Shown here: one piece after another, positions 31,924 to 55,146 of the stretch
How the letters are laid out: each line of letters starts with the position of its first letter
Numbering within the stretch: the first letter of the stretch is position 1
Source: a virus
Lineage: Duplodnaviria > Caudoviricetes
Virus record (IMG/VR): IMGVR_UViG_3300022843_000014
Location: 1 to 57,160 of that record
Direction: 5' to 3' (one strand)
Length of the DNA: 57,160 nucleotides
Notes under the pieces: model-generated
The model's database searches: none
Seen by the model: the letters and a program-made list of their open reading frames with translations, nothing else
What the model was told of the DNA's origin: nothing
Program-made: the position numbers and the translations under genes

Positions 31924-32368
31924 ACACCCCAATATGTATAATTCAGGGTACGATGTTATCCAGGAATTAATTAATACGGGAGATTTGAACAAATTATTTT
32001 GCACTTTTACAGACTTAGAGGGTCTTGATAGACTTATTGAAGATATACAATCTAAATATACAATTATATATAATAAAATATTTGTTTTAGAGATTGTAGG
32101 TAAAGACGAGTACGTTGTAACCTATAATGTAGATCCGGGTAATGTTAATTCTATCCCAGATAATACCATTCTGGTACATCGGAAGAAGGAGTCTAATACT
32201 CTCTATTCAATAAATTCACTTAATGAGTTAATTAAGAAGTTGAATGGTGGTGTTGTAGATACAAAATTCCAAATAGATTGGCAACAACACCGAAATAGTA
32301 TTTTATTAACCCAGAATGGGGAGTTTGCCCAGTTGAAAACTAAAATCTATAAAATAATTACACTATAA
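31904..32368 (+). CDS. Conserved hypothetical protein
   Basis: NKLFCTFT and HRKKESNTLY; true start may be 31934 or later. Confidence 0.6.
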   Translation: MITILNKHPNMYNSGYDVIQELINTGDLNKLFCTFTDLEGLDRLIEDIQSKYTIIYNKIFVLEIVGKDEYVVTYNVDPGNVNSIPDNTILVHRKKESNTLYSINSLNELIKKLNGGVVDTKFQIDWQQHRNSILLTQNGEFAQLKTKIYKIITL

Positions 32369-32453
32369 TAAACAATAATATATTTGGAGGTAGGCTACCC
32401 GAGGTAGGGTTCGTATCTTCACATTTTAATAAAAACAAAACAATATAAACATA

Positions 32454-33014
32454 ATGAAAGAATTAACAGCATTTAGAAAGTACTTGGTAGAAGGAAAAAC
32501 ATCACAACCCAATGATGATTTAAAAACTCCAATTAAAGAATCCAAAGAGGAGGAGCAAGCATCAGTATATTGGGGTATTATGGTTAAAAACCAACCTGAG
32601 GATGTAATACGAATGTTAACTGATTTGGTAACGGGTAAGAATACATTTGATGAATTTATAGATAATTTTGAAGTGGATATGTTTGATTCATTTAAAGATG
32701 AAAATTTTGAAGATGAAGATGAATTAAATGAAGATTCAGAAGAGGGTGAATATCAAGCTTCATTAGATAGACTTAGAACATTTGATAGAAATGAATTTAT
32801 TGATGATGCAGACCTAACAGAAGGTAAAGATTGGGCAGATTATGATTGGGATTTTTCAGATTCAGATTCAATTGATTTTGGGAAATTTGAGGTTGATATT
32901 GAGGAATTTAGAAAGAATACTAAGGGGTTTGTTGTTGATAATAATGGTAAAGAAAGGAAAATTGACAAAGCAACTATTAAGGATATACTTCAATCCTATA
33001 GAGAAAATAACTAA
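32454..33014 (+). CDS. Acidic modular protein with capsid-targeting-like leader
   Basis: FRKYLVE leader, internal IKE/LNE/LTE sites; last module duplicated at 42965-43171. Confidence 0.6.
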   Translation: MKELTAFRKYLVEGKTSQPNDDLKTPIKESKEEEQASVYWGIMVKNQPEDVIRMLTDLVTGKNTFDEFIDNFEVDMFDSFKDENFEDEDELNEDSEEGEYQASLDRLRTFDRNEFIDDADLTEGKDWADYDWDFSDSDSIDFGKFEVDIEEFRKNTKGFVVDNNGKERKIDKATIKDILQSYRENN

Positions 33015-33015
33015 A
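32809..33015 (+). repeat. ~207-bp dispersed repeat, copy 1
   Basis: Near identical to 42965..43171 (5 mismatches by eye). Confidence 0.95.
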
Positions 33016-33105
33016 ATCTGACAAAACATATTAAAATAAATTAGGAACCCCGGAAGGGGTTTCATATATTTAAGTCAACATAAACAATTAAATTAAAGTT
33101 ACATT

Positions 33106-33951
33106 ATGGATTTAAATGCATTAAAGAAAAAATTGGACACACTCCAATCAAAACCCCAAGTAAGGGAAGCAACTGACTATTCACTAATATTTTGGAAACC
33201 CTCAATAGGTAAACAACAAATTAGGATAACACCATCGGCTTTCGATAATTCAAACCCCTTCACGGAACTAAAATTCCATTACGGTATTACTAACAAAGTA
33301 ATGATTTCTCCTTCTAATTTTGGTGAAAAAGATCCAATAATTATGTTTGCGGAAAAGCTTAGGGAGGAATACACAAAGGAAAATTACTTATTAGCTAAAA
33401 AGTTAGATGCTAAAAACCGTATTTTTGTTCCCGTTGTAGTTAGAGGTGAAGAAGATAAAGGTGTTAGACTATGGCAATTTGGTAAACAAGTATATGAAGA
33501 ATTGTTAGCTTTAGCTGTGGATGATGAAATAGGTGATTACACTGATATTGTAAATGGTAGAGACCTTACTATAGAGACAGTAGGGCCAGAGGCTACGGGA
33601 ACACCTTACAATAAATCGTCTGTTCGTGTTAGATTAAAAACCTCACCATTAAGTGATGATGCTACAAAAGTTGAATTATGGACATCAGAACAACCTAACC
33701 CTAAAGAAGGATTGTTTAAAGAATATTCATTTGATGAAATGAAAGCAGCATTAGAACAATGGTTATCACCCGAAGCAGAACCAGAAGATGACAAATCATT
33801 CCCAGATACTCCTGCCCCTAAAAAGCAAGCTAGTAATTTTAATTTAGATACTAGTAATGTTAAACAAAATAAAGCGGATCAATTTGATGCCTTATTCCCT
33901 GAATTTGAAACTTCATCACCTTCTGCTAAGGTTAATGATCTTCCTTTCTAA
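33106..33951 (+). CDS. Single-stranded DNA-binding protein (gp32-like)
   Basis: FWKP, LWQFGKQVY, GRDL motifs and acidic tail ending DLPF; upstream of recombinase. Confidence 0.8.
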   Translation: MDLNALKKKLDTLQSKPQVREATDYSLIFWKPSIGKQQIRITPSAFDNSNPFTELKFHYGITNKVMISPSNFGEKDPIIMFAEKLREEYTKENYLLAKKLDAKNRIFVPVVVRGEEDKGVRLWQFGKQVYEELLALAVDDEIGDYTDIVNGRDLTIETVGPEATGTPYNKSSVRVRLKTSPLSDDATKVELWTSEQPNPKEGLFKEYSFDEMKAALEQWLSPEAEPEDDKSFPDTPAPKKQASNFNLDTSNVKQNKADQFDALFPEFETSSPSAKVNDLPF

Positions 33952-33953
33952 AT

Positions 33954-35027
33954 ATGGCAAAAAGGATACCAAAATCTCTCTCGGCAGCTGTGTCTGCCGA
34001 GATTAAGAGTAAATTTGATCTTAATAAATTCAAAGCCTCTAAAGGTTTAGATAAAAATGTTAAATTTAAGGAACAAAGATGGATTCCTCTATCACCCGCA
34101 TTTCAAGAAGTAGCGGGGGTACCTGGAATCCCAATGGGGCATATTACTTTGCTCCGAGGTCATTCAGATACTGGTAAAACAACTGCACTTCTAGAGGCGG
34201 CGGTTGAAGCTCAAAAGATGGGTATATTACCTGTTTTTATAATTACTGAGATGAAATGGAATTGGGAGCATGCTTCTCAAATGGGGTTACAAGTTAACCT
34301 TATTAAAGATGAAGATGGTGAAGTTGTAGACTATGATGGTGATTTTGTGTATGTAGATAGAGAAACCTTACATACCATAGAAGATGTTGCTGCTTTTATT
34401 ATGGACCTTCAAAACGAACAGAAAAAAGGCAATTTACCTTATGATTTAGCTTTCTTTTGGGATTCCATAGGTTCAATACCTTGCCTAATGTCAGTTGAGA
34501 AACTAAAAAACAACAACGAATGGAATGCTGGAGCTATGTCAACCCAATTTGGTAACACTGTTAATCAAAGTATTGTAATGTCTCGTAAAGAATCATCACC
34601 TTACACTAACACCCTAGTTGCCATTAACAAAGTTTGGACTGCTAAAGCAGAATCACCTATGGGACAACCTAAGATGATGAACAAAGGAGGAATGGCTATG
34701 TGGTACGATGCAACATTTGTAGTTACTTTTGGTAATGTCTCAAATTCTGGAACATCTAAGATAAAAGCTATTAAGGGTGGAAAGCAGGTAGAATGGGGTA
34801 AACGTACTAACTTACAAATTGATAAAAACCACGTAAATGGTATACAATCAAGAGGTAAAATTGTTATGACTACTCACGGTTTTATTGAGGATTCTGAAAA
34901 GGATAAAAACCAATACAAGAAAGAACACTCTGAAGAATGGGCTAAAATCCTAGGTGGAGGTAAGTTTGAAATTGTAGAAGATGATGATGATGTAACCCCT
35001 GTCTTATTTGATCAAGAAGACATTTAA
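33954..35027 (+). CDS. RecA/UvsX-like recombinase
   Basis: GIPMG..., Walker A GHSDTGKT, Walker B FFWDSIG, KGG motif. Confidence 0.88.
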   Translation: MAKRIPKSLSAAVSAEIKSKFDLNKFKASKGLDKNVKFKEQRWIPLSPAFQEVAGVPGIPMGHITLLRGHSDTGKTTALLEAAVEAQKMGILPVFIITEMKWNWEHASQMGLQVNLIKDEDGEVVDYDGDFVYVDRETLHTIEDVAAFIMDLQNEQKKGNLPYDLAFFWDSIGSIPCLMSVEKLKNNNEWNAGAMSTQFGNTVNQSIVMSRKESSPYTNTLVAINKVWTAKAESPMGQPKMMNKGGMAMWYDATFVVTFGNVSNSGTSKIKAIKGGKQVEWGKRTNLQIDKNHVNGIQSRGKIVMTTHGFIEDSEKDKNQYKKEHSEEWAKILGGGKFEIVEDDDDVTPVLFDQEDI

Positions 35028-35037
35028 AAACAACAAA

Positions 35038-36078
35038 ATGAATAATAAAGAAATATTTAAACTCCTGGGTGACATTCAGGAAGATCAGGAAATCCTAACC
35101 CCTAACAGACATGAAAGGGTACTAATTTTGGATGGCTTAAACCTGTTCTTCCGAAATTTTGCTATGATGAATATGATAAATCCCGATGGTGTTCATATAG
35201 GGGGTTTAGGTGGTTTCTTTCGTTCTTTGGGGGCTATGATTAAGCAAACAAACCCCACTTCTGTTTATGTAGTATTCGATGGGGTAGGTTCAACTGTTAA
35301 TAGAAAGAATCTACTCTCCGAATACAAGGGAACAAGAAACATACAAAGAATTACTAATTGGGAGATTTTTGACAATATTGAAGAAGAGCATGATTCCAAA
35401 ATAGACCAAATTGTGCGCATAATACAGTATTTAAAATTATTACCCATAAAAACAACCATACTTGATAAGGTTGAAGCTGATGATGTAATAGCTGTGTTAG
35501 CTGAAAAATTAGTTGAGAAATATAATTCTACATGCTTTATAGTATCTAGTGATAAAGATTTTCTACAACTAGTAACAAATAAAATCATTGTATACAGCCC
35601 AATAGAAAAAGTATATTATACTCCCGAAGCTGTAGAAAAGAAATTTGGATTACTACCCTCTAATTTTATTTTATATAAAACCTTACTAGGAGATAGTTCG
35701 GATAATGTAAGAGGTATTAAGGGTTTGGGTGCTAAAGGAATATTTAAAAAATTCCCGGAGTTGATAACTCAAAAATTAACCCTAGACGATATTTTTGATA
35801 TATGTGCTACTAAATTTAAAGAACATATTATATATTCTCGCATAATCCAAGAAAAATCACGAATAGAAATTAATTATAAAGTTATGGACTTAAGTATTCC
35901 TTTAATTGATGATAAAGGTAAAAAACATGTTAGTGACTTAATAGATGATGACTTGCCTGATCTAAATTCTGAAATGTTTATTTCACTATACAATGAAGAT
36001 AGATTAGGAGGAATGATTAGAAATGTAGATATGTGGTTAAAAGATATATTTTCAAAGTTTCCAATCTATAAAAAATAG
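35038..36078 (+). CDS. 5'-3' exonuclease/flap endonuclease (T4 RNase H-like)
   Basis: LILDGLN, VVFDG, YKGTR, EADDVI, SSDKDFLQL, GDSSDNVRGIKGLG motifs. Confidence 0.92.
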   Translation: MNNKEIFKLLGDIQEDQEILTPNRHERVLILDGLNLFFRNFAMMNMINPDGVHIGGLGGFFRSLGAMIKQTNPTSVYVVFDGVGSTVNRKNLLSEYKGTRNIQRITNWEIFDNIEEEHDSKIDQIVRIIQYLKLLPIKTTILDKVEADDVIAVLAEKLVEKYNSTCFIVSSDKDFLQLVTNKIIVYSPIEKVYYTPEAVEKKFGLLPSNFILYKTLLGDSSDNVRGIKGLGAKGIFKKFPELITQKLTLDDIFDICATKFKEHIIYSRIIQEKSRIEINYKVMDLSIPLIDDKGKKHVSDLIDDDLPDLNSEMFISLYNEDRLGGMIRNVDMWLKDIFSKFPIYKK

Positions 36079-36150
36079 TGGCTTGGAGTCATAAAGAGCA
36101 AGTCGTATATTCGACACAAATGGGTTATAAACTTTTAAATAGAAATTAAA

Positions 36151-37539
36151 TTGACTTTACATACGCTAAACCAATATGGAACTGACTTTCAAATAAAGGC
36201 AATTTCATCACTCTTAACACATAAAGAATTTTTAATCAACATACATGACATAATTAGTCCTGATTACTTTGAAAATAGTGCCCACAAATGGATAATAAAA
36301 GAAATACTAAAATATTACGAACGTTACCACACTACACCTAATCTTGAGACTCTAAAGATTGAATTAAAAAAAGTAGATAACGAAGTATTACAAATTTCCT
36401 TAAAAGAACAACTTAAACAAGCATATGTAGCTTCTGATGATGATTTAGTATATATTCAGGAAGAGTTTACTAATTTTTGTAAAAATCAACAATTAAAAAG
36501 AGCTTTAATGACATCAGTTGACCTATTGAAGGCAGGTGACTTCGAGGCAATAAGAATGTTGGTAGATAATGCCCTTAAAGCTGGACAGGATAAAAACTTA
36601 GGGCACGAGTATCTTAAGGATCTTGAGGATCGTTATAGAGTAGATACTAGAAAAGTAATAGCTACTCCTTGGCCTTTAATTAATAATCTTTTACAAGGAG
36701 GGTTAGGGAATGGTGATTTTGGTCTTATATTTGGTAACCCAGGTGGGGGAAAATCATGGTCGTTGGTGGCAATAGGAGGACATGCTGTAAGATGTGGTTA
36801 TACTGTCTTACATTATACTCTTGAACTTGGAGAAGATTACGTTGGTAAAAGATACGATGCTTATTTTACGGGAATAGATGTTAGTGATAGCGTAAGATTA
36901 AAACCAAAAGCTCAGGAAATAATACCACAACTCCCAGGTCAACTTATAATTAAAGAATACCCTACAGGGAGAGCAACTGTATCAACTATTGAATCCCACA
37001 TTAAAAAATGTGAGGGTATGGGTATAAAAGCAGATCTAATTATTATAGACTATGTTGACCTTCTTTCATCAAAAAGACAAAATCGTGAACGTAAAGATGA
37101 AATTGATGATATTTATATTAGTACTAAGGGTTTAGCTAAGCAACTTAATATCCCAGTATGGTCAGTATCACAGGTTAATCGTGCGGGTGCAAATGATGAT
37201 ATTATTGAAGGAGATAAGGCAGCAGGTTCTTATGATAAACTAATGATTACTGATTTTTGTATGTCTTTATCTCGCAAAAAAGAAGATAAAGTAAATGGTA
37301 CTGGAAGGTTTCACGTTATGAAAAACCGCTATGGTCCTGATGGTTTAACTTATGGGGTAGATGCAGACACCAGTACAGGACATTTTGAGGTATCTGAAAA
37401 GTATTCGTCAACAGGTGAAAACGAAGATAAGACATGGTCACCTAGTACTAAGTCTAATAGCTTGGATACTACAGATTTTCAAACAAAGAAAAAATTAGCA
37501 GAAAAATATAGTTCTGCTTTTTTTAACATAGATAGTTAA
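36151..37539 (+). CDS. Replicative DnaB-like helicase (gp41-like)
   Basis: Walker A GNPGGGKS, TLEL, IIIDYVDL, SQVNR, KNRYG; TTG start. Confidence 0.92.
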   Translation: MTLHTLNQYGTDFQIKAISSLLTHKEFLINIHDIISPDYFENSAHKWIIKEILKYYERYHTTPNLETLKIELKKVDNEVLQISLKEQLKQAYVASDDDLVYIQEEFTNFCKNQQLKRALMTSVDLLKAGDFEAIRMLVDNALKAGQDKNLGHEYLKDLEDRYRVDTRKVIATPWPLINNLLQGGLGNGDFGLIFGNPGGGKSWSLVAIGGHAVRCGYTVLHYTLELGEDYVGKRYDAYFTGIDVSDSVRLKPKAQEIIPQLPGQLIIKEYPTGRATVSTIESHIKKCEGMGIKADLIIIDYVDLLSSKRQNRERKDEIDDIYISTKGLAKQLNIPVWSVSQVNRAGANDDIIEGDKAAGSYDKLMITDFCMSLSRKKEDKVNGTGRFHVMKNRYGPDGLTYGVDADTSTGHFEVSEKYSSTGENEDKTWSPSTKSNSLDTTDFQTKKKLAEKYSSAFFNIDS

Positions 37540-37573
37540 ATAAATAATTTATAAATTAAAAACCAAAAAAAGA

Positions 37574-38560
37574 ATGAAAGAATTAAACGGATTTATTGAA
37601 CCCCTTTTAGAAGAAAATCCAAACCGATTTGTAATCTTCCCTATTCAACATGATGATATCTGGGATATGTATAAAGATCAACAAGCTAGTATTTGGTCGG
37701 CCGAGGAGATAGACTTAAGTTCAGATATTGATGATTGGGAAAATAAATTGAATGATGATGAACGTTATTTTATAAAGCATATTCTTGCTTTTTTTGCAGC
37801 ATCAGACGGAATTGTAAATGAAAATCTTGCGGAGAATTTCGTGAACGAAGTACAATATTCTGAAGCAAAATTTTTCTATGGTTTCCAAATCATGATGGAA
37901 AACATTCATTCTGAAACCTACTCTTTATTAATAGACACCTACGTTAAGGATAATAAAGAAAAAGACCAGTTGTTTAAAGCAATTGAACACTTTCCGGCTA
38001 TAAAGAAAAAAGCAGACTGGGCCATGAAGTGGATCGATAGCCCTTCTTTTGCAGAGCGCTTAATAGCGTTTGCAGCCGTAGAAGGTATTTTCTTTTCAGG
38101 AAGTTTCTGTTCTATCTTTTGGTTAAAAAATAGAGGATTATTGCCTGGGTTAACTTTTTCCAATGAGTTAATATCCCGAGATGAAGGTTTACATTGTGAT
38201 TTCGCAGTTCACTTACATAATAATCATTTAGTGAATAAAGTTCCTAAAGATCGTATCCGGGAAATAATATTATCAGCTTTAGAAATAGAAAAAGTATTTA
38301 TAATAGAATCTCTACCAGCTAGTTTAATTGGGATGAATTCAGGATTAATGACTCAATACTTAGAATACGTAACTGATAGATTGTTAATGGAATTAGGAGT
38401 AGAAGCGGAATTTAATGTTTCTCAACCTTTTAAATTTATGGAAATGATAGCACTAGAGGGACAAACTAATTTCTTTGAAAAGAGAGTAGCTGAATACCAA
38501 AAAGCAGGTGTTAAAGATGGGGAAGTAAGAGGAAATTTAGACTTTGACGCTGAGTTTTAA
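37574..38560 (+). CDS. nrdB: Ribonucleotide reductase class Ia beta subunit
   Basis: [42 protein letters not shown]. Confidence 0.96.
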
Positions 38561-38576
38561 AAATAATAATCAATAT

Positions 38577-40934
38577 ATGCAACAATCTAAGATTAAAAAA
38601 AGAAATGGTAGTTTAGTAAATATAGACTTTAAAAAAATACAAACTAGAATTACTTTAGCAGGAAAGGGACTAAAAGTAGATCCTTTAGAAATATCAATGA
38701 AAGTAATCCAGGGAGTATACGATGGAGTAACAACAACAATATTAGATCAACTAGCGGCTGACACCGCTGCTAGTTATGTTTTAGATCACCCAGATTACAG
38801 TAAATTAGCGGGGGAAATTGCTATTTCATCATTACATAAAGAAACAACAGGTAGTTTTACTAAAGTGTTTGAGAAAATGGATAGTGAAAACCTATTAGAT
38901 CCCTTATATAAAGAAAAATGCTTAAGTTATGGTCTAGATAAAATTTCTAAGATAATTGATTATCAAAAAGATTTTAAATTAGAATATTTTGGTTTTAAAA
39001 CTTTAGAAAGATCATATCTTGTTAGAATTAAAAAAGTTATTCTAGAACGCCCACAAGACATGTATATGCGAGAAGCAATTACAGTTACAAGGTCATTTAA
39101 AGATGCTGTTGAAACCTATGATATCTTATCTAATTGGGGGTACACTCATGCTACTCCTACAATGTTTAATTCGGGTTTAAAAAATCAACAACTAGCTTCT
39201 TGTTTTTTAATCAATAACAAAGGGGATAGTAAAGATGGTTTACTAGATACTCTAAAAGACGTATCTATTATATCATCTGGTGCAGGTGGTTTAGGAATTT
39301 CTATATCAGGTGTAAGAGCTGCGGGTTCTGATATTCATTCTTCGGGAGGTCACAGTAATGGTTTAATGCCTATGTTAAGAACATATAACGAATCCGCTAG
39401 GTGGTGGGATCAAGGGGGAGGAAAGCGTAAAGGTTCTTTTGCAATGTATCTAGAACCTTGGCACTCTGATATTATGACTTTACTTGATATTAGAAAAAAC
39501 CACGGAGCAGAAGACTTAAGAGCAAGAGACTTATTCCCAGCTTTATGGATTCCAGATTTATTTATGGAAAGAGTAAATAATAATGGTACTTGGTGTTTAA
39601 CTTGCCCTAATGAACAATTAATTAATGGTTTTACTCGACTTGATGAAATACATAGTGAAGAATTTAATATTGAATACCATAAAATTGAGCAAGCCGTAAC
39701 AAATGGTTTAATGCACGGAAAAATTATCAAGGCACAAGACATTTGGACTAAGATAATTGAATCCCAAATTGAAACAGGAACCCCTTATATGCTATATAAA
39801 GATGCTGCCAATAATAAATCAAATCAGAAAAATTTAGGTACTATCAAATCTTCTAATTTATGCACCGAAATAATAGAATACTCAGCCCCCGATGAACAGG
39901 CGGTATGTAATTTAGCTTCTATTAATTTAACAGTACTTATTAAGGATGGTGAAGTAGATTACGATCAACTGTATAAAGTAACTAAATTAGTAACTAAAAA
40001 CTTAAATACGGTTATCGATGTTTCTACATACCCCACTAAAGAAACTGAATATAGTAACTTAAAAAATAGACCAATTGGTTTAGGAGTACAGGGTTTAGCA
40101 GATTTATTTGCTCAATTGAAACTTCCGTTTACTTCTATCCCCGCTAAGGAAATAAATAGTAATATCTTTGAAGTAATGTATAAAGCAGCACTTGACGCAT
40201 CTGTAGAGGAGGCAATTAAATTTGGTAGCTATAATTCATTCCCTGGTTCTCCTGCTAGTGAAGGAATACTACAATTCGATATGTGGGAAGTTAAACCTAA
40301 ATTTTTTAGTGAAGCTAAATGGAATATTACAAGAGAAAGAATTAAAAAACACGGTCTACGTAACTCACTGTTTTTAGCTCCTATGCCTACAGCATCAACG
40401 GCTCAAATTATGGGTAATAATGAAGCCTTTGAACCCTTTAAAAATAACATGTTCGTTAGAAGGGTGCTATCAGGGGAATTTAATGTGGTAAATAAATATC
40501 TAGTTGCTGACTTGGAAAAAGAAGGGTTATGGGGTACTGAGATTAAAAATAAGATAATTAGTGATGATGGTTCTATCCAAAACATACCTGAAATACCTGT
40601 TTTTATAAAGGAATTATATCCTACCATATGGGAAGTTAGTATGAAGGATATTATAGATATGGCAGCGGATAGAGGTGCTTTTATAGATCAATCTCAAAGC
40701 ATGAATCTATGGTTAAAAAACCCTACATTTAATAAGATATCAAGTATGCATTTTTATGGGTGGAGAAAAGGGTTAAAAACAGGTATGTACTATCTAAGGA
40801 CAAAATCCGCAGTAGGGGCAATTAAAACTTTAGGTATATCAGCACCCCCTACACCAATAACAACCGAAGATTTTCGTAAAATGGTAGAATTATCTAAATC
40901 ATCACCTGAAGATTGTGAAATGTGTGGGTCTTAA
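38577..40934 (+). CDS. nrdA: Ribonucleotide reductase class Ia alpha subunit
   Basis: N-terminal ATP cone, ATPTMFN, SCF, SNLCTEI, CNLASI, APMPTAST, C-terminal CEMCGS. Confidence 0.96.
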   Translation: MQQSKIKKRNGSLVNIDFKKIQTRITLAGKGLKVDPLEISMKVIQGVYDGVTTTILDQLAADTAASYVLDHPDYSKLAGEIAISSLHKETTGSFTKVFEKMDSENLLDPLYKEKCLSYGLDKISKIIDYQKDFKLEYFGFKTLERSYLVRIKKVILERPQDMYMREAITVTRSFKDAVETYDILSNWGYTHATPTMFNSGLKNQQLASCFLINNKGDSKDGLLDTLKDVSIISSGAGGLGISISGVRAAGSDIHSSGGHSNGLMPMLRTYNESARWWDQGGGKRKGSFAMYLEPWHSDIMTLLDIRKNHGAEDLRARDLFPALWIPDLFMERVNNNGTWCLTCPNEQLINGFTRLDEIHSEEFNIEYHKIEQAVTNGLMHGKIIKAQDIWTKIIESQIETGTPYMLYKDAANNKSNQKNLGTIKSSNLCTEIIEYSAPDEQAVCNLASINLTVLIKDGEVDYDQLYKVTKLVTKNLNTVIDVSTYPTKETEYSNLKNRPIGLGVQGLADLFAQLKLPFTSIPAKEINSNIFEVMYKAALDASVEEAIKFGSYNSFPGSPASEGILQFDMWEVKPKFFSEAKWNITRERIKKHGLRNSLFLAPMPTASTAQIMGNNEAFEPFKNNMFVRRVLSGEFNVVNKYLVADLEKEGLWGTEIKNKIISDDGSIQNIPEIPVFIKELYPTIWEVSMKDIIDMAADRGAFIDQSQSMNLWLKNPTFNKISSMHFYGWRKGLKTGMYYLRTKSAVGAIKTLGISAPPTPITTEDFRKMVELSKSSPEDCEMCGS

Positions 40935-40956
40935 TTTGTAACATAAAACATAAAGT

Positions 40957-41133
40957 ATGAAGTTTAAAGTAGGTGATAAAGTTAAATTTAAGTTCTTAAG
41001 CATACCTACAATTGGTATTATTGATCATATTCGCCCCTTAGCTTATGGGGCGGATCATAGTTTATGGTATTTTATTAATGATGGGGCTCATAGATATCCT
41101 ATTAGATTAAAGGACATACAAGAAAAAATATAA
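40957..41133 (+). CDS. Small SH3/KOW-like protein (below ORF-track cutoff)
   Basis: MKFKVGDKVKF...RYPIRLKDIQEKI, 58 aa. Confidence 0.6.
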   Translation: MKFKVGDKVKFKFLSIPTIGIIDHIRPLAYGADHSLWYFINDGAHRYPIRLKDIQEKI

Positions 41134-41186
41134 CACCCAAGAATATTTTACACATATATATAATAAACAATTAAAATAAAATAAAT

Positions 41187-41411
41187 ATGATAACAACAGA
41201 ACAAGGGAAAAAACCTAAATTTTTGAAGAGAATTTTTGACTCTATTAAGTCTTGGATAGTAGGTAACGGGATAGAAGGATTTTTAGGATTAATCCTAGGA
41301 TTGGTTCTTCTATCATTTAATATCAAAGTATATGCTGGAGTAGCATTTGGAGTATTTGCAACCCGTAACTGGGATTTATTTAAAAAAGCAGTTAGAGGAC
41401 TATTCAAATAG
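41187..41411 (+). CDS. Small membrane protein
   Basis: Two hydrophobic segments; late-type motif upstream and terminator downstream. Confidence 0.55.
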   Translation: MITTEQGKKPKFLKRIFDSIKSWIVGNGIEGFLGLILGLVLLSFNIKVYAGVAFGVFATRNWDLFKKAVRGLFK

Positions 41412-41438
41412 TAAAAAATAAAACAATCTTTATAACAG

Positions 41439-41465
41439 AAAGGATGCATTAGCATCCTTTTTTTA
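41439..41465 (+). terminator. Intrinsic terminator
   Basis: AAAGGATGC-ATTA-GCATCCTTT followed by a T run. Confidence 0.8.
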
Positions 41466-41511
41466 ATATGTATGATTAAACAAGTTATAGTTATTATTAA
41501 TAGTTACCAAT

Positions 41512-41940
41512 ATGGTTAAATCAAAGTATATGAAAATAGTATTAGCTAGCTCTATGGTGATAGGGTTTATTGTCTCTTATTTCTTAAACATTACAATGGT
41601 TAATGCCGAACAATATATAGCAGTAGTAGCAGTAGTGATTATAGATGGTATATTTGGTATAATCTCGGGAATTAAACGTGAAGGGTTCAAAACATATAAA
41701 GCGATAAAAATACTGACATCACTTTTTGCATGGGTATTAATTCTAACTTCTATATTAATGGTAGAAAAAGGATTTCCGGGTACTAGTTGGTTAAGTGAAA
41801 CTATTATAGCTCCTTTTATCATATTCCAAATAATATCCGCTCTTAAGAATGCATCAATGGCTGGATTTATTCATAACGATTTACTAAATATTATTTTAGA
41901 TAAATTAGATAATCATAAAGGACAAAGAATTTTAAAATAA
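41512..41940 (+). CDS. Holin-like membrane protein
   Basis: Three to four TM segments, IIDGIFGI and SALKNA..AGF pattern; upstream of endolysin. Confidence 0.65.
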   Translation: MVKSKYMKIVLASSMVIGFIVSYFLNITMVNAEQYIAVVAVVIIDGIFGIISGIKREGFKTYKAIKILTSLFAWVLILTSILMVEKGFPGTSWLSETIIAPFIIFQIISALKNASMAGFIHNDLLNIILDKLDNHKGQRILK

Positions 41941-41955
41941 ATAAGTTATTTAAAT

Positions 41956-42219
41956 ATGTTATACCTGTTAAACCAATTAAAATGTAGATGGATGGCTTTT
42001 AAAGATATATTTAAAGATAGTAATGACCTGAATGAGAAAACTATTGTAGGCTTTGCTTGTTTTACAGTAATGGTTATATTTGCAACAGCAGATATAATCT
42101 CAGGATTTTTTGGTAGAGATCTAGTTATAAACGAATTTATTTATAACTCCTTTGTTATTATAACTCTAGGGTCCTTTGGTATTGCCGAAATAGGCAAAAT
42201 ATTTAGCAAAAAAGAATAA
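41956..42219 (+). CDS. Small two-TM membrane protein (lysis module)
   Basis: Two hydrophobic segments; adjacent to endolysin. Confidence 0.55.
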   Translation: MLYLLNQLKCRWMAFKDIFKDSNDLNEKTIVGFACFTVMVIFATADIISGFFGRDLVINEFIYNSFVIITLGSFGIAEIGKIFSKKE

Positions 42220-42238
42220 AGTACCAAAATAAAAGAAT

Positions 42239-42853
42239 ATGAGTTTAAAAAATTTACAGAGTAAGATTGGAACAACCAATGACGGAGTATTTGGTCCTGG
42301 CACAATGAAAAAAGCTATGGAGTTTTATAAATTCACTCCGGTAAGAGCAGCCCATTTCTTTGCCCAAACATCACATGAAACAGGCAATTTCAGATTATTT
42401 ACAGAAAATTTAAACTATAGTGCTAAAGGATTACAGAGCACATTTAAAAAGTATTTTCCTACTTTAGAGAAGGCACTACTTTACCAAAGAAAACCTCAAC
42501 AAATAGCAAACTTAGTATATGCATCTAGAATGTCCAACGGGAATGAGGCATCAGGAGATGGATGGAAATTTAGAGGAAGAGGAGCCTTGCAAACCACAGG
42601 TAAAGCAAATTATCAAGCTTTATCTAATTATTTAAAAAACCCCGAGATAATGGTTAATCCCGACTTAGTTGAGTCTGAATTTGCATTTGAATCAGCAATA
42701 TTCTTTTTTGATAAGAATAAACTTTGGTCTATTTGTGATGAAGGGATATCAGATAATACTATCTTAAAAATATCCAAACGCATTAATGGGGGAACAAATG
42801 GGTTAGAGGATAGAATTAAAAAAACCAAACAATATTTCAATTTTATAAAATAA
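42239..42853 (+). CDS. Endolysin, glycoside hydrolase family 19
   Basis: AHFFAQTSHET, ENLNYS, FRGRGALQTTGKANY, INGGTNGLEDR. Confidence 0.92.
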   Translation: MSLKNLQSKIGTTNDGVFGPGTMKKAMEFYKFTPVRAAHFFAQTSHETGNFRLFTENLNYSAKGLQSTFKKYFPTLEKALLYQRKPQQIANLVYASRMSNGNEASGDGWKFRGRGALQTTGKANYQALSNYLKNPEIMVNPDLVESEFAFESAIFFFDKNKLWSICDEGISDNTILKISKRINGGTNGLEDRIKKTKQYFNFIK

Positions 42854-42882
42854 CTAAATTAACTAAATAAAACAATAATAAA

Positions 42883-43170
42883 ATGGTAGAATTAATTAGA
42901 ATGAATAAATTAGCAGGTTTAATTACTGAAGAACAAGCTAGAAAAATGATGGATGTGTTAGGTACAGATCTAACAGAAGGTAAAGATTGGGCAGATTATG
43001 ATTGGGATTTTTCAGATTCAGATTCAATTGATTTTGGGAAATTTGAGGTTGATATTGCAGAATTTAAAAGGAATACTAAGGGGTTTGTTGTTGATAATAA
43101 TGGTAAAGAAAGGAAAATTGACAAAGCAACTATTAAGGATATACTTCAATCCTATAGAGAAAATAACTAA
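42883..43170 (+). CDS. Small protein: scaffold-like leader fused to duplicated acidic module
   Basis: N-terminal RMNKLAGLITE matches scaffold C-terminus RMRKLAGLI; C-terminal 63 aa shared with 32454..33014. Confidence 0.65.
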   Translation: MVELIRMNKLAGLITEEQARKMMDVLGTDLTEGKDWADYDWDFSDSDSIDFGKFEVDIAEFKRNTKGFVVDNNGKERKIDKATIKDILQSYRENN

Positions 43171-43171
43171 A
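42965..43171 (+). repeat. ~207-bp dispersed repeat, copy 2
   Basis: Near identical to 32809..33015. Confidence 0.95.
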
Positions 43172-43191
43172 TTATAATAAAAACAAAAGAT

Positions 43192-48399: not shown

Positions 48400-48462
48400 A
48401 TTAGGCTACCCAAGATATTTTTTGTACCTTTATGGGAAAGATAATAATAAACAATAAAAGTT

Positions 48463-48897
48463 ATGAAAGAATATAAAGTAGAAGTTACAGAAGGAAGTAC
48501 AAGATGGTACAATTTAGAAGGGAAACGTCATAGAGAAGATGGCCCCGCTATTGAGTATTCAAATGGAGACAAATGGTACTACATTAATGGTCAACTTCAT
48601 AGAGAGGATGGTCCAGCAATTGTATGTATGAATGGAGACAAATGGTACTTCATTAATGGTAAACGTCATAGAGAAGATGGACCTGCTGTTGAGTGGAAAA
48701 ATGGATCTAAATCTTACTACATTAAGGGTGAGTGTCATAGAGAAGATGGACCTGCTATAGAATGGGTAAATGGAGATAAGTGTTACTTCATTAATGGTGA
48801 AGAATTAACCGAAGAAGAATTTAATAGTAGAACTAAAACCTGTGAAGGTAAGGTAGTAGAGATAGAAGGTGTAAAGTATAAATTAACTAAAATATAA
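48463..48897 (+). CDS. HREDGPA-repeat protein A
   Basis: Four 23-aa repeats; paralog at 54619..55053. Confidence 0.85.
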   Translation: MKEYKVEVTEGSTRWYNLEGKRHREDGPAIEYSNGDKWYYINGQLHREDGPAIVCMNGDKWYFINGKRHREDGPAVEWKNGSKSYYIKGECHREDGPAIEWVNGDKCYFINGEELTEEEFNSRTKTCEGKVVEIEGVKYKLTKI

Positions 48898-48902
48898 AAG
48901 TT

Positions 48903-49499
48903 ATGGTAGAGTATAAAGTTAAAGTTACAGAATATAGCACAGAATGGTACAACTTAAAAGGTCAACTCCATAGAGAAAATGGACCTGCTGTTAAGTGGAC
49001 AAGTGGATATAAAGCTTACTACATTAATGGTATAAAACATAGAGAAGATGGACCTGCTATTGAATATAGTGATGGAGCTAAATATTACTACATTAATGGT
49101 AAACGTCATAGAGAGGATGGTCCCGCTATTGAACATGCAGATGGAGGTAAATGGTACTACATTAACGGTAAACCACATAGGGAAGATGGCCCTGCTATTG
49201 AACATGCAGATGGAGGTAAATGGTACTTCATTAACGATAAATTATTAACCAAAAAAGAATTCAACAATAGAACAACACAAACAACTACAAAAATAGAAAC
49301 AATTATGATGTCACTTTATGATTATTTAGGAAAAGCAGCAGGTCCTGCTTTAGGAAAAAAAGTTTATGCTTATTCAAAAATTAGAAAAGAAAAAAAAGAA
49401 ATGAGAGATGTAGAAAACTCCAAATTTACGGGTGAAGTTTTCATATACAGAAAAGAATTCTTAGATGAATATTTTAAGGTCGAAAAAATATTTCAATAG
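48903..49499 (+). CDS. HREDGPA-repeat protein B fused to an unrelated C-terminal domain
   Basis: Four repeats, then a T-rich linker and a MMSLYDYLGKAAG... domain. Confidence 0.8.
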   Translation: MVEYKVKVTEYSTEWYNLKGQLHRENGPAVKWTSGYKAYYINGIKHREDGPAIEYSDGAKYYYINGKRHREDGPAIEHADGGKWYYINGKPHREDGPAIEHADGGKWYFINDKLLTKKEFNNRTTQTTTKIETIMMSLYDYLGKAAGPALGKKVYAYSKIRKEKKEMRDVENSKFTGEVFIYRKEFLDEYFKVEKIFQ

Positions 49500-49799: not shown

Positions 49800-50672
49800 A
49801 TGGTAAAGCAAAAAGAACACGTAGTAGTATCATTAAGTGGGGGTTTAGATTCAAGTACATTACTTTTAAGATGTCTAAAGGAATTTAAAACTGTAACGGC
49901 GATAAGCTTTGATTATGGTCAAAAACACAGAGTAGAATTAGAAAGAGCTCAATCATTAGTAAAATATCTCCAAGACCAAGGGTTTGAATTAACTCACCAA
50001 ATAATAACATTAGGAGGGTTGTCTAATCTACTTGTAAGTGGTTTAGTAGATAATGGATCTATGGAAATGAAAAAGGGTCACTATGCTCACGAAAACGCAC
50101 TGACAACCGTAGTTCCAAATCGTAATGCTATATTTGCATCAATTACATATGCCATAGCTTTATCCATGGTTAAACGAACAGGGGAGTCGTGTAAAATAGC
50201 TTTAGGGACACATATGGGGGATTTTAACAACAAAACACAAACCGGAATATACCCTGATTGCTCAGAAGAGTTTCGTGTAGCTTTAGAACATGCCTTTAAA
50301 ATAGGAAATTGGGATTCCGATAAAGTAGATTACTATGCTCCATATAATATAACTGACAAAACCGGAGTATTGAAAGACGGCATTGAATGTTGTAAAAAAT
50401 TAGGGTTAGATTATAAAGAAATATATAGTAGAACAATGACCAGTTATGCTCCAATTTATGTAGGTTTTATTGATGGGGGGGATGATAATATAGAAAAAGG
50501 AGTATGGTATAGTGACTACTTAAGTGGATCAAGTATTGAACGTGTGGAAAGTTTTATCAAGTTAGGAATAGAAGACCCAGTTCAATATGCCGAAGAGGAT
50601 GGTACTTTAGTTTCATGGGAATTTGTTAAAAAATATGTTGAGAAAATTTGTAAAGAATACACACCCTCATAA
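49800..50672 (+). CDS. queC: 7-cyano-7-deazaguanine synthase
   Basis: SLSGGLDS PP-loop, FDYGQKH, VPNRNAIF, YPDC. Confidence 0.9.
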   Translation: MVKQKEHVVVSLSGGLDSSTLLLRCLKEFKTVTAISFDYGQKHRVELERAQSLVKYLQDQGFELTHQIITLGGLSNLLVSGLVDNGSMEMKKGHYAHENALTTVVPNRNAIFASITYAIALSMVKRTGESCKIALGTHMGDFNNKTQTGIYPDCSEEFRVALEHAFKIGNWDSDKVDYYAPYNITDKTGVLKDGIECCKKLGLDYKEIYSRTMTSYAPIYVGFIDGGDDNIEKGVWYSDYLSGSSIERVESFIKLGIEDPVQYAEEDGTLVSWEFVKKYVEKICKEYTPS

Positions 50673-50785
50673 AATTCACAATATGTATCGTACAGCTACT
50701 ATGTTAAGATAAAAATTAGTACTCATATTTATATATGATAGCTTCATTCAACCCTCATATAAAAATAAAGAGCATTAATATCAAA

Positions 50786-51313
50786 ATGATAGAACTAATA
50801 GACTTATCAAAAAACAAAATTCTTGTTCCAAGACGCTCTCCTGAGGAACGTTCTAAGAACTTTTTAATTGTCACCCAAAAGAAAATCAAACAATATATAA
50901 AGAGCGGTAGTAAAGGTGATCTTCATTTAATAGGTACACCTATAACCTCCCTACCTCAAGGTTTAACAGTAGAGGGATACCTTAATCTTTATGGGAGTAA
51001 AATAACTTCTCTACCCCAGGGCTTAACAGTAGGGGGTTATCTTGATTTAAACAAAACACCCATCACTACCCTCCCTAAAGGTTTAAAAGTAAAAGGTAAT
51101 CTTTTTTTAAGAAATACTCTAATAACCTCCCTTCTGCAAGGTTTAACAGTGGGAGGTGATCTTCATTTAGAAGATACTAAAATAACCTCCCTCCCTCAAG
51201 GTTTAACGGTAGAAGGGTATCTTTATTTACCAAGTATACCTTTCTTTAAAAAATATAGTGAAGAACAAATTAAACAAAGGGTACACGGAGTAAAACATAT
51301 AATATATTTATAA
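50786..51313 (+). CDS. LRR protein 1 (5 full 20-aa repeats)
   Basis: Start MIELIDL by homology to paralogs; repeat xLxLxxTxITSLPQGLTVxG. Confidence 0.85.
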   Translation: MIELIDLSKNKILVPRRSPEERSKNFLIVTQKKIKQYIKSGSKGDLHLIGTPITSLPQGLTVEGYLNLYGSKITSLPQGLTVGGYLDLNKTPITTLPKGLKVKGNLFLRNTLITSLLQGLTVGGDLHLEDTKITSLPQGLTVEGYLYLPSIPFFKKYSEEQIKQRVHGVKHIIYL

Positions 51314-51320
51314 ACATATA

Positions 51321-52088
51321 ATGATAAAATTAATAGATTTACTAGAAAACAAAATTCTTGTTACAAGACGTTCCCCTGAAGAACGCTCTAAGAACTTTTT
51401 AATTGCTACTCAAAAGAAAATCCAACAGTATATAAAAGATGGGAGTAAAGGTGATCTTGATTTAGAAAATACTCCAATAATCTCCCTACCTCAAGGTTTA
51501 ACAGTAGGAGGTTATCTTAATTTAGGTAGAACACCAATAACCTCCCTACCTCAAGGTTTAACAGTAGGAGGTGATCTTAATTTAGAAAATACCCCAATAA
51601 CCTCCCTACCTCAAGGTTTAGAAGTAGGAGGTTATCTTAATTTAAGAAATACACCAATAACCTCCCTACCCCAAGGCTTAACAGTAGGAGGTTATCTTGA
51701 TTTAGAAAATACCAAAATAACCTCCCTACCTCAAGATTTAACAATAAGAGGTGATCTTGATTTAAGAGGTACTCCCATTACTTCTTTACCTCAAGGCTTA
51801 AAAGTAGGTGGTTATCTTTATTTAGGAAATACCAAAATAACCTCATTACCACAAGGTTTAACAGTAGGGGGTTATCTTAATTTAAGAGATACCAAAATAA
51901 CCTTTCTACCACAAGGTTTAACAGTAGGGGGTAATCTTAATTTATATGGGAGTAAAATAACCTCTCTCCCTCAAGATTTAACAGTAGGAGGTTCTCTTTA
52001 TTTAACTAATACCCCACTTTCCAAAAAATATAGTGAAGAACAAATCAAACAAATGGTACCTGGTGTGAAGGGTGAAATTTATATATAA
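51321..52088 (+). CDS. LRR protein 2 (9 full 20-aa repeats)
   Basis: 60-bp tandem repeat; MIKLIDLLE leader. Confidence 0.9.
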   Translation: MIKLIDLLENKILVTRRSPEERSKNFLIATQKKIQQYIKDGSKGDLDLENTPIISLPQGLTVGGYLNLGRTPITSLPQGLTVGGDLNLENTPITSLPQGLEVGGYLNLRNTPITSLPQGLTVGGYLDLENTKITSLPQDLTIRGDLDLRGTPITSLPQGLKVGGYLYLGNTKITSLPQGLTVGGYLNLRDTKITFLPQGLTVGGNLNLYGSKITSLPQDLTVGGSLYLTNTPLSKKYSEEQIKQMVPGVKGEIYI

Positions 52089-52795
52089 TGATAAAACTAA
52101 TAGATCTCTTAGAAAATAAAATCCTAGTCCCTAGACGCTCTCCTGAGGAACGCTCTAAGAATTTTTTAATTGCTACTCAAAAGAAAATCCAACAATACAT
52201 GAAGGATGGAAGTAAAGGTGATCTTGATTTAAGAGATACCCCAATAACCACCCTCCCCCAAGATTTAACAGTAGGTGGTTATCTTTATTTAGGAAATACC
52301 AAAATAACCTCATTACCACAAGGTTTAACAGTAGGAGGTAATCTTAATTTATTTGGGACTAAAATAACCACTCTACCTCAAGGTTTAACAGTAGGAGGTA
52401 ATCTTAATTTAAGATATACCCCACTAACCTCTCTACCTCAAGGTTTAAAAGTAGGAGGTTATCTTAATTTATTTGGGACTAGAATAACCTCCCTACCCCA
52501 AGGTTTAACAGTAGGAGGTGATCTTAATTTAGAAAATACCCCAATAACCTCCCTACCTCAAGGTTTAGAAGTAGGAAAGGATCTTTATTTAAGAGATACC
52601 AAAATAACCTCTCTACCTCAGGGTTTAAAAGTAGGAGGTGATCTTAATCTAGCTAATATCCCAATAACTTCTCTACCCAAAGGTTTAACAGTAGGAGGTT
52701 CTCTTGATTTAGAAGATACCCCCATCTCTAAAAAATATACTAAAGAACAAATTAAACAAATGGTGCCTGGAGTAAAAGGTGAAGTTTATATGTGA
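52088..52795 (+). CDS. LRR protein 3 (8 full 20-aa repeats)
   Basis: 60-bp tandem repeat; MIKLIDLLE leader. Confidence 0.9.
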   Translation: MIKLIDLLENKILVPRRSPEERSKNFLIATQKKIQQYMKDGSKGDLDLRDTPITTLPQDLTVGGYLYLGNTKITSLPQGLTVGGNLNLFGTKITTLPQGLTVGGNLNLRYTPLTSLPQGLKVGGYLNLFGTRITSLPQGLTVGGDLNLENTPITSLPQGLEVGKDLYLRDTKITSLPQGLKVGGDLNLANIPITSLPKGLTVGGSLDLEDTPISKKYTKEQIKQMVPGVKGEVYM

Positions 52796-52874
52796 AAACA
52801 CAATGATAAAACTAATAGAAAACTTGGCGATATTACTTCTCCTTCATATATTTATAACTGTATAAAAATAACTA

Positions 52875-53544: not shown

Positions 53545-53616
53545 TAGCCTGTGGTATAACGGTTATTACATTTGACTTTGACTCAAATAATGGGAGTTCG
53601 ATTCTCTCCAGGCTAA
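53545..53616 (+). tRNA. tRNA-Gln(TTG)
   Basis: TAGCCTG/CAGGCTA acceptor stem; TTTGA-CTTTGAC-TCAAA. Confidence 0.9.
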
Positions 53617-53760
53617 CAATAATCAGAATAAAAGTAAATAAATTGAGATTAGTATTTATAGCAAACGGAAACTTTGCAATAGCAGCCTAGCAATAGGCTT
53701 TAAATCCTTAAACAAGGTTTATAGATTTAACGTACCGCCTGAAACGTAATTCAGGCAAAT

Positions 53761-53833
53761 GGCTCTATGATGTAACTGAATAGCATAGAAATCTTCTAAA
53801 TTTCTTGTATGGGTTTGAATCCCATTAGAGTCT
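53761..53833 (+). tRNA. tRNA-Arg(TCT)
   Basis: GGCTCTA/TAGAGTC; GAAAT-CTTCTAA-ATTTC. Confidence 0.85.
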
Positions 53834-53840
53834 CAAATAA

Positions 53841-53915
53841 GCAGGTGAGGTTAAGGTAACCGGTTGCTCTCCAAAAGCAATGATACACGAATAGGTTCGA
53901 TTCCTATCACCTGTG
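53841..53915 (+). tRNA. tRNA-Trp(CCA)
   Basis: GCAGGTG/CACCTGT; TTGCT-CTCCAAA-AGCAA; short D arm and enlarged variable region. Confidence 0.8.
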
Positions 53916-53940
53916 CAAAAATTAATATAATTATTAAATC

Positions 53941-54450: not shown

Positions 54451-54456
54451 AAAATT

Positions 54457-54530
54457 GAGCAAGATGTTTATGGTTGGACAGTTAGTTTGCAAAACTAATC
54501 TTTTAGTGGGTTCGATTCCCACCTTGCTCT
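54457..54530 (+). tRNA. tRNA-Cys(GCA)
   Basis: GAGCAAG/CTTGCTC, U73; TTAGT-TTGCAAA-ACTAA. Confidence 0.85.
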
Positions 54531-55137: not shown

Positions 55138-55146
55138 GATTAAATT

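Follow-up and report, generated by a model that had tools for sequence, protein, structure and literature searches.

Two open reading frames (ORFs) of an uncultured viral genome end in the same 63-residue acidic module, each behind a different short N-terminal peptide, here called a leader. The genome is IMG/VR record IMGVR_UViG_3300022843_000014, and the window analyzed is the whole 57,160-base contig. ORF A (186 aa; 32454–33014, + strand) is an accessory gene between a 154-aa gene and the gene for the single-stranded DNA-binding protein (SSB), and ORF B (95 aa; 42883–43170, +) lies 29 nt past a GH19-type endolysin gene. In related phages, leaders of at least five kinds combine freely with cargo modules, and one kind copies the tail of the phage scaffold; every leader kind, like the domain junctions, ends by sequence in an aliphatic-x-E motif of the type cut by gp21, the T4 prohead protease. 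We consider it probable, if only by a modest degree, that ORF A and ORF B consist of capsid-targeting leaders and protease-released cargo, a variant of the capsid targeting sequence (CTS) system of T4; this reading is built on sequence comparison and analogy. Gene assignments, here and below, come from PHROGs and Pfam searches of the window. To judge by these, the source is an uncultured aquatic myophage with a T4-type head, because it encodes both a Peptidase_S77 prohead protease of the T4 gp21 family (9253–9855, +; PF03420, E = 1.8e-24; phrog_207, E = 4.1e-56) and a major capsid protein of the Gp23 family (12101–13771, +; PF07068, E = 8.7e-74). The gp21-like protease that an earlier note on this DNA had presupposed is thus present.

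One Module in Two Proteins

A repeat search of the window returned 218 nt at 96% identity (32809–33026 and 42965–43182, both +), the mark of a recent duplication or gene conversion. The earlier note had reported a shared segment of 207 bp with five mismatches; compared base by base, 32809–33015 and 42965–43171 differ at exactly five positions (32813, 32902, 32903, 32911 and 32914), four of them within 13 bases, and the result is three conservative amino-acid changes (E to A, R to K and K to R). Identity extends from the codon preceding D-L-T-E to a few bases past the stop codon, between unrelated flanks. Because it begins in that codon, the LTE site lies inside the copy, four codons before the G of GKDW, and the limits of identity define the copied unit as DLTE plus the 63-aa module GKDW...RENN, hereafter M2, which ends both proteins as the note had stated. 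The segment records a recent event, by copying or gene conversion, in which M2 and its DLTE junction passed from one leader gene to the other. The note had also set the start of the duplication at DLTE/GKDW. It does start near the LTE site, but that site is within the copy, and a single breakpoint near [LI]xE carries no significance alone, since these proteins have about three such sites per 100 residues (five in the 186 aa of ORF A and three in the 95 aa of ORF B, versus 0.013 per residue over the 64 window ORFs). To judge by the sequences at hand, the aliphatic-x-E regularity exceeds chance only across relatives.

ORF A begins MKELTAFRKYLVEG, and its leader (residues 1–13, MKELTAFRKYLVE; 32454–32492, +) is a predicted helix (2–13) that ends L-V-E before G-K. 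A first module, M1 (residues 30–93; 32541–32732, +), is a predicted three-helix bundle with an acidic tail and lies between IKE (27–29) and LNE (91–93), both found where the earlier note had them bounding segments. An acidic linker with one helix, 97–109, follows (residues 94–123; 32733–32822, +); it ends D-L-T-E, supplying a further site, LTE (121–123), and leads into copy A of M2 (residues 124–186; 32823–33011, +), predicted to fold as beta-beta-alpha-beta-beta-alpha. ORF B has a leader of 16 residues (MVELIRMNKLAGLITE; 42883–42930, +) containing RMNKLAGLITE, then a helix, then copy B of M2 (residues 33–95; 42979–43167, +) with the same predicted fold.

The AlphaFold model of ORF A, at a mean predicted local distance difference test score (pLDDT) of 67.8, shows the leader helix (2–13), disorder over residues 14–28, the three-helix bundle of M1 (32–82, pLDDT 75–89) and its disordered acidic tail, followed by helix 97–109, a low-confidence linker holding LTE, and M2; pLDDT is below 50 from residue 122 on (122–127 and 129–133). 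The ORF B model, at pLDDT 66.2, has the same M2 fold. Of the five [LI]xE sites in ORF A, four map in its model to the point where the leader helix ends or to low-confidence linkers that join folded parts.

An exhaustive phmmer search of 1.84 billion representatives with ORF A (E ≤ 0.001) found 38 proteins, 27 of which match residues ~20–105 only (M1) and 11 residues ~102–185 only (M2). None of these 38 representative matches covers both modules, which argues that ORF A is a chain of two independent ones. M1 is recognized by the motif YW.IMV.NQPEDV...DSF[RK]DE, followed by the acidic tail. ORF A, ORF B and an 83-aa ORF discussed below hit no Pfam or PHROGs family; Foldseek returned nothing at E ≤ 0.001 for the M2 model against PDB or the ORF A model against BFVD; a fold search of the ESM Atlas with M2 gave only template-modeling (TM) scores <0.5; and neither tblastn with ORF A (E ≤ 0.01) nor blastn with 32300–33200 matched any of 50,697 cultured-phage records. 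A protein search with ORF B, limited to near lengths, recovered ORF B itself as its sole match.

The earlier note had read the acidity of the module as a sign of DNA-mimic anti-defense proteins, and this part of its proposal found no support. Both proteins are acidic (isoelectric point 4.21 for ORF A and 4.63 for ORF B), with a net charge of −15.5 on M1 and only about −4 to −5 on M2, and acidity alone is insufficient to define the DNA-mimic class. A match to known mimics of the Ocr/ArdA type was sought in Pfam, PDB and BFVD and none was obtained, with models of only pLDDT 66–68.

At the C-terminus of many M1 proteins and of further cargos stands an Asp/Glu run capped by a single Phe or Tyr (..DEDEF, ..DDDDF, ..DDDDY), as in P0021, P0023, P0025, P0029, P0033, P0038 and L016:1690–2088, and the phage's own SSB ends ..NDLPF. 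We take such ends to resemble the partner-binding acidic C-terminal tails of SSB-type proteins.

Leader Kinds and Their Cargos

N-terminal peptides of at least five kinds were defined from the 38 relatives and the loci fetched around them. Kind 1, M[KE]EL..FRKYL.EG, is that of ORF A and of the 83-aa ORF (10590–10841, +; leader MEEFNTFRKYLMEG), which sits between the protease gene, with its HNH neighbor, and the scaffold gene. The earlier note had pointed to this second FRKYLVE-type leader, and F[RK][KR][YF][LIM] does occur, among window ORFs of at least 80 aa, at those two leaders only. Kind 2 is MK..[EQ][LF]R.LIREE[IV]..[VL].E, kind 3 M[DE]NF[DN]L[KR]K[YF]L.EG[KR]L..E, kind 4 MKKADNF.A.KWLVENKITTQS.L.E, and kind 5, the kind of ORF B, ..[RK]MQKLAG[LI]I.E. 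M1 is found behind all of kinds 1–5 and M2 behind kinds 1, 2, 3 and 5, so that modules are swapped between leaders, as the note had supposed.

The same freedom is seen from the side of the leader. FRKYLxEG occurs in frame 37 times in IMG/VR, 24 times within seven residues of the first ATG, and 22 of these 24, with about 13 different cargos between them, have M[KE]E[LIF]xxFRKYLxEG at the start. Kind 2 comprises 32 proteins in 10 cargo clusters, over which column conservation ends at motif position 15, the E of [VLIM]-x-E in 6/10. Tandem arrays join one leader to unrelated cargos, with five genes in L014, five in L016 (kinds 2 and 5 alternating) and four in L021; the L014 array lies in a contig of 99 kb, in which genes for an S77 protease, a Gp23-type capsid protein and a scaffold ending ..RWQKLAGIK are also found. 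Leader motifs stand between domains as well: NFDNLAEGRLLKE before M2 in P0020, ENK[IV]TTQS.LNE preceding M1 in P0032 and P0033, and RMQKLAGLITE preceding M1 in P0031.

A 187-aa acidic ORF adjoining the terminase genes (1195–1758) was considered as a kind-2 leader gene and set aside: it starts MKKSELKDYIKE, which is alike by eye, and a late-type motif stands upstream, but the leader hidden Markov model (HMM) scores it at E = 24.

The Scaffold Tail as a Leader

A scaffold-like acidic protein of 344 aa (11035–12069, +), assigned by position and composition, is encoded directly upstream of the capsid gene; it has no family match in PHROGs or Pfam. It ends ...YDRMRKLAGLI, and this C-terminal tail, RMRKLAGLI (12040–12066, +), is the model of the ORF B leader. 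In a six-frame search of the window, [KR][ML].[KRE]LAG is found at these two places only. The tail is general among relatives. Scaffolds end ..RWQKLAGIIK in Flavobacterium phage vB_FspM_immuto, ..RWQKLAGIK in G001 and ..RMKKLAGIVK in Microcystis phage Mel-JY01; and when 80 loci were fetched by way of their capsid protein (64–85% identity), all 67 with a scaffold-sized ORF upstream had ..LAG[LI].. within its last 16 residues, the other 13 lacking upstream DNA or the capsid ORF. An HMM of kind 5, built from 11 leaders and run against the 64 window ORFs and three foreign scaffolds, placed ORF B at the top, followed by the four scaffold C-termini (E = 7e-4 to 0.016) and then by a match at E = 0.85. 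The earlier note's description of RMNKLAGLITE as a near copy of the scaffold C-terminus therefore stands.

At least 122 in-frame cases of the octapeptide MQKLAGII, in at least 119 loci, were found in IMG/VR. Among the matches listed, 94 of 122 lie 0–3 residues before a stop codon (84 of these in ORFs of at least 150 aa), 23 lie 7–13 residues after the first ATG and five are internal. Also among the matches listed, x-E follows the octapeptide, giving I-x-E, in 28/28 non-terminal cases and never forms the scaffold C-terminus, except as ..KEN. L10, G12 and E16 of the ORF B leader are invariant in 12/12 aligned kind-5 leaders.

ORF B itself was rejected as a scaffold paralogue, as it shares the tail motif only, and at its N-terminus, whereas the scaffold of this clade is a long acidic protein with a conserved N-terminal helix, ..DLLKEAIADAK...

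Aliphatic-x-E at Leader Ends and Junctions

Both window leaders end in (L/I)-x-E, at LVE13 in ORF A and ITE16 in ORF B, and module boundaries in relatives fall at such sites, in keeping with the earlier note. Among 35 M1 proteins with at least 12 residues upstream of the core, [LI]xE ends 5–13 residues before the YW motif in 29, and two of the six exceptions have VNE at that place. Where another domain follows M1, [LI]xE comes 7–21 residues past the core in 8/8; where M1 is C-terminal, no [LI]xE is found past the core (0/27), the tails there being short (2–19 residues). The DLTEGK junction recurs in P0003, preceding a different domain.

The capsid protein carries a comparable site. L55, V56 and E58 are invariant in 23/23 aligned capsid sequences, (L/I)(V/I)xE is aligned at the maturation position in four phages, and the maturation cut is likely at L55-V56-V57-E58/S59. 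The position of L55-V56-x-E58 suits removal of a propeptide, so that the S77 protease probably accepts V besides L/I.

Replacement, Deletion and Fusion in Relatives

The junctions are also where relatives differ. Locus L007 has flanking genes essentially identical to those of the window and keeps the leader (MKELNAFRKYLNEE) and the stretch from DSEEGEYQASL to the end, but an unrelated segment stands in place of residues 15–93 of ORF A. In L006 only the last 19 codons of ORF A survive. A homologue in L004 (297–863; contig 3300037606_000347) has an in-frame stop right before FIEDADLTE, which marks a pseudogene, a mistake of assembly or a gene that is naturally split. In L243 two neighboring genes are found: one of 76 aa, in which the leader runs straight into M2 (..FRKYLAE/GKDWSDY..), and one of 159 aa, with the same leader on a segment also found in L007. 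This direct fusion, a third fusion context, puts the boundary of M2 exactly at E/GKDW.

The ORF A slot does not always hold a leader gene, as we had considered it might: of 56 related loci with both flanking genes, 51 are empty there (a gap of ~72 nt), three have a kind-1 leader gene with a new cargo and two have another ORF. Kind-1 genes with other cargos occupy the slot in L253/L263/L271, L245 and L257, and also in L317 and L335. Between protease and scaffold, a small leader-bearing ORF with differing cargo is present in the window (83 aa), in immuto (75 aa) and in L100 (72 aa), and 54/58 related loci with both genes lack an ORF at that place. In L002, ORF B is 95% identical, next to an endolysin only 65% identical, which points to recent exchange or strong constraint.

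Promoter-Like Motifs and Gene Timing

A promoter-like motif, GTTCGTATCTTCAC (32409–32422, +), stands 31 nt upstream of ORF A, and a terminator-like hairpin (33044–33063, +) 3' of it. The motif belongs to repeat family D4 (31824–55119), a ~76-nt cassette of a hairpin (CTAGG..CCC..) plus GTTCGTATATTTAC that recurs upstream of replication genes and many small right-end genes; exact GTTCGTATATTTAC is found at 44330, 53121, 53313, 54583 and 55084, and near copies at 30626, 32409 and 33060. The cassette looks like a terminator-plus-early-promoter unit and could mediate cassette shuffling too. It resembles the promoter-early stem-loops of T4-type phages.

Structural genes have a different motif. Exact ATATTTATAAYAA occurs at 1160, 16807, 19700, 21331 and 23763, 20–35 nt upstream of the 187-aa ORF, the sheath gene, the tube gene, an 801-aa ORF and a 75-aa ORF; with at most one mismatch there are 10 matches versus 3.1 expected, and we regard it as a possible late promoter. 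Terminator-like hairpins are followed by a second variant, ATATGTATAAT, upstream of an HNH gene, a 391-aa ORF and the holin gene.

Proposed Mechanism and Alternative Explanations

The same protease family, the shared leader logic (a short helix, aliphatic-x-E and variable cargo) and the scaffold-tail leader together suggest capsid-addressed cargo, and from them we infer docking, cleavage, packaging, ejection and effector function. Through its leader the protein would dock in the prohead core during assembly, and a leader of the scaffold-tail kind would do so by the same contact as the scaffold tail. Cuts by the S77 protease after Glu would then follow at LVE13, IKE29, LNE93 and LTE123 of ORF A and at ITE16 and LTE32 of ORF B, removing the tag and separating, within the head, the independently folding modules that flexible linkers join; ORF A would yield leader, M1, linker and M2. 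The freed modules would either remain and be ejected with the DNA or exit with scaffold fragments; we lean towards the former, though overall it is less likely than not. The widest form of the proposal is that T4-like phages of aquatic Bacteroidota and their relatives use at least five interchangeable clip-off address peptides, one of them a mimic of the scaffold tail, to load fast-changing small acidic modules into the prohead, singly or chained, which the protease frees and which are injected as host-takeover or anti-defense effectors of the first minutes; in that full form we consider it somewhat less likely still. The earlier note's plug-and-play system of packaging leaders is thus partly supported, namely as to module swapping, (L/I)xE boundaries, the scaffold-tail copy and the S77 protease, and not as to a DNA-mimic role.

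Several observations weigh against capsid addressing. Only the ORF B leader is linked by sequence to a head protein: HMMs of kind 2 and of kinds 1/3/4 found no scaffold in the same set of ORFs, and kind 1 is tied to the head only through the 83-aa head-module ORF and the interchangeability of leaders. ORF A lies among replication genes, behind an early-type motif of the family shared with the polymerase, SSB and small right-end genes, and the ATATTTATAAYAA motif of structural genes is not the one upstream of it, although T4, too, is described as producing its internal proteins abundantly at early times (PMC6071114 section 4). The modules are acidic, unlike the basic internal proteins of T4. 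The fifth [LI]xE site of ORF A (IEE/IAE) falls in a helix within the M2 fold. The motif counts come from related sequences and are not independent events, and a full-text literature search of a limited collection found no paper on such leaders. A complex prediction pairing the capsid protein (23-row alignment) with residues 1–40 of ORF B (12-row alignment) scored 0.00 in two runs without controls and counts neither for nor against the reading.

Some of these points would be expected if the leaders were N-terminal docking helices for a job outside the capsid, bound to a cytoplasmic partner (the replisome, a transcription component or a chaperone), with cargos acting early inside the cell and x-E a structural feature of helix ends. 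This explanation, which we hold to be unlikely, would account for the place of ORF A between the polymerase-like and 154-aa genes and SSB, for its early-type motif, for the other kind-1 genes in the same replication slot, for the Phe/Tyr-capped acidic runs of many M1 proteins if their likeness to SSB-type tails holds, and for the absence of any Pfam family among 29 leader-bearing relatives (0/29). It leaves unexplained that one kind of leader coincides with the scaffold's closing residues in 67/67 relatives, that x-E follows the motif in all 28 non-terminal cases among the matches listed and is kept off the scaffold C-terminus there apart from ..KEN, that leader-bearing ORFs lie between protease and scaffold, and that leader motifs serve as inter-domain linkers (P0020, P0031, P0032, P0033 and at least five internal MQKLAGII).

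The leader might instead be kept for a nucleotide-level reason, as a translation-initiation region or a recombination site for cassette shuffling, the peptide itself having no function. Exchange of cassettes at or near leader and linker (L007 versus the window; L243) would fit, as would the hairpin and promoter-like cassettes flanking ORF A and many small genes, and a 73-nt similarity between ORF A and the 83-aa ORF (family D6) that takes in upstream bases. The codons speak otherwise, and we judge this account very improbable. Over 15 codons, paralogous leaders differ by 25 synonymous versus 33 non-synonymous changes in L014 and 20 versus 35 in L021, with the LRQLIREE core almost unchanged in both, so that the peptide is kept despite many synonymous changes. 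RMNKLAGLI of ORF B and RMRKLAGLI of the scaffold differ in 7/9 codons, six of them synonymously, which argues that the likeness is one of peptide and not of DNA; and the same peptide is found at C-termini and inside proteins. That the repeat is an ordinary recent domain duplication between paralogous accessory genes, with the nearness of LTE and the leader likeness coincidental, is scarcely credible: a breakpoint within a few codons of [LI]xE is fairly often expected at ~3 sites per 100 residues, and the four clustered mismatches fit a simple conversion tract, but hundreds of independent contigs show the leader families, their combinations and the x-E rule again, L243 reproduces the E/GKDW boundary, and the leader HMM, the scaffold survey and the MQKLAGII and FRKYLxEG scans have already largely refuted coincidence.

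Other Features of the Genome

The window has a G+C content of ~32%, and all its recognizable genes are on the + strand. The closest cultured phage is Flavobacterium phage vB_FspM_immuto, with 54.7% identity in the capsid protein. Large terminase (2440–4020, +) and portal (4059–5954, +) genes were identified by PHROGs and Pfam, as were sheath, tube and baseplate genes. Between portal and protease, a 481-aa head-module protein (7801–9246) has an N-terminus, M.T[LI]Q..Y.[LA]I.EGK, that is kept in three phages (L001 5683–6765; L030 7202–8080). This is another helix ending I-x-E/GK, and the protein is likely a prohead core protein with a clip-off N-terminus of its own. The replication block consists of a polymerase-like ORF, the 154-aa ORF, ORF A, SSB, a UvsX-like recombinase, an exonuclease, a DnaB-like helicase and ribonucleotide reductase; holin and GH19-type endolysin genes precede ORF B.

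The remaining content is small genes, homing endonucleases and tRNA genes. Four HNH/homing endonuclease genes are present (9905–10570, 18945–19643, 53941–54450 and 55759–56445), one of them between the protease gene and the 83-aa ORF and another between sheath and tube; in L270 the first is broken into two pieces. At the right end (53545–57088), ten tRNA genes (Gln, Arg, Trp, Leu, Thr, Gly, Glu, Ala, Asp and Met) lie among small ORFs. Three neighboring paralogous ORFs of 192, 255 and 235 aa (50735–52815; repeat families D1 and D3) are made of 60-nt (20-aa) tandem repeats, and three other paralogues of 144, 198 and 144 aa (48449–49257 and 54605–54973; family D2) begin M[KV]EYKV.VT..ST.WYN. A QueC-like 7-deazaguanine synthesis gene is found at 49800–50672 (phrog_1550, E = 7e-31), and immuto phages figure in a paper on 7-deazaguanine DNA modifications (PMC10516641).

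Comparison with Known Systems

In T4, internal proteins carry a CTS of ~10 residues with affinity for the prohead core (PMC9026906 sections 2.5 and 2.6; PMC3012670 section 6), which gp21 removes after L/I-X-E (PMC9026906; PMC3012670 section 6); the CTS of IPI–IPIII and Alt was reported by Mullaney and Black in 1996 (cited in PMC9026906). The cited texts describe these proteins as dispensable and variable among T-even phages (PMC9026906 section 3.1; PMC3012670 section 6), IPI as an injected anti-restriction protein (PMC9026906) and IPI–III as basic DNA-binding proteins (PMC9026906 section 2.3). The phage studied here is alike in having a gp21-family (S77) protease and a Gp23 capsid protein, in short N-terminal peptides that end in aliphatic-x-E and are common to unrelated small accessory proteins, and in dispensable genes that lie dispersed outside the head module and vary from one relative to another. 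It differs in having at least five interchangeable leader kinds instead of one, one of them a copy of the scaffold tail; in acidic cargos; and in allowing one leader to head a chain of cargos joined by leader-like or x-E linkers. No homology to IPI, IPII, IPIII or Alt was found in Pfam or PHROGs, or by the tblastn search with ORF A described above, which makes this an analogue of the T4 system and not a member by descent.

Encapsulin cargo-loading peptides and the coat-binding C-terminus of P22-type scaffolds show that a short terminal peptide can bind inside an HK97-fold shell and be moved between cargos. Those peptides lie at C-termini and are not known to be clipped off by proteolysis, in contrast to the tags described here, which are N-terminal or internal and are followed by a cleavage motif.

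The variable internal-protein genes of T-even phages with CTS-like sequences are also comparable, in that the address peptide is kept and the cargo replaced, as in the ORF A slot (window, L007, L253, L245, L257, L317 and L335) and in the arrays of L014, L016 and L021. The present genes differ from these in belonging to immuto-related aquatic phages, with larger arrays, several leader kinds, and fusion and fission at the level of domains. In phage P1, an N-terminal signal of at most 30 residues on DarB, whose cargo is anti-restriction, suffices for loading into a myophage capsid (PMC9024508). P1 is described there as having no separate scaffold protein (PMC9024508), so that no scaffold-tail mimicry is described for it, and its signal serves one large cargo, unlike the combinatorial family here. 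In phiKZ, 201phi2-1 and SPN3US, ejection or inner-body proteins have propeptides that are cut after Glu by a diverged gp21 homologue (PMC9026906 section 3.2). The likeness is that many head-internal proteins are processed after x-E there, with propeptides that have several cleavage sites; the difference is that the proteins are large ones of giant phages, and the cited section reports no shared short scaffold-tail leader (PMC9026906 section 3.2).

If the leaders are address tags, a leader followed by x-E would pick out, from sequence alone, a large number of proteins that abundant aquatic phages deliver in the virion and that lack annotation, and the leaders would serve as they are to load foreign proteins into the capsids of non-model phages. 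The scaffold-tail copy suggests how a CTS can arise and what it binds. One module behind two address kinds in one genome is a natural experiment, and in relatives modules have been replaced, lost, fused or split precisely where cuts are predicted. Capsid targeting as a principle is already known, as is the fact that internal proteins vary among T-even phages; what may be new, with no paper describing it found in a full-text search of a limited collection, is the use of a scaffold-tail copy as an address, the interchange of leader kinds on the same cargo families, the chaining of modules by x-E linkers, and the spread of this arrangement in uncultured aquatic T4-like phages.

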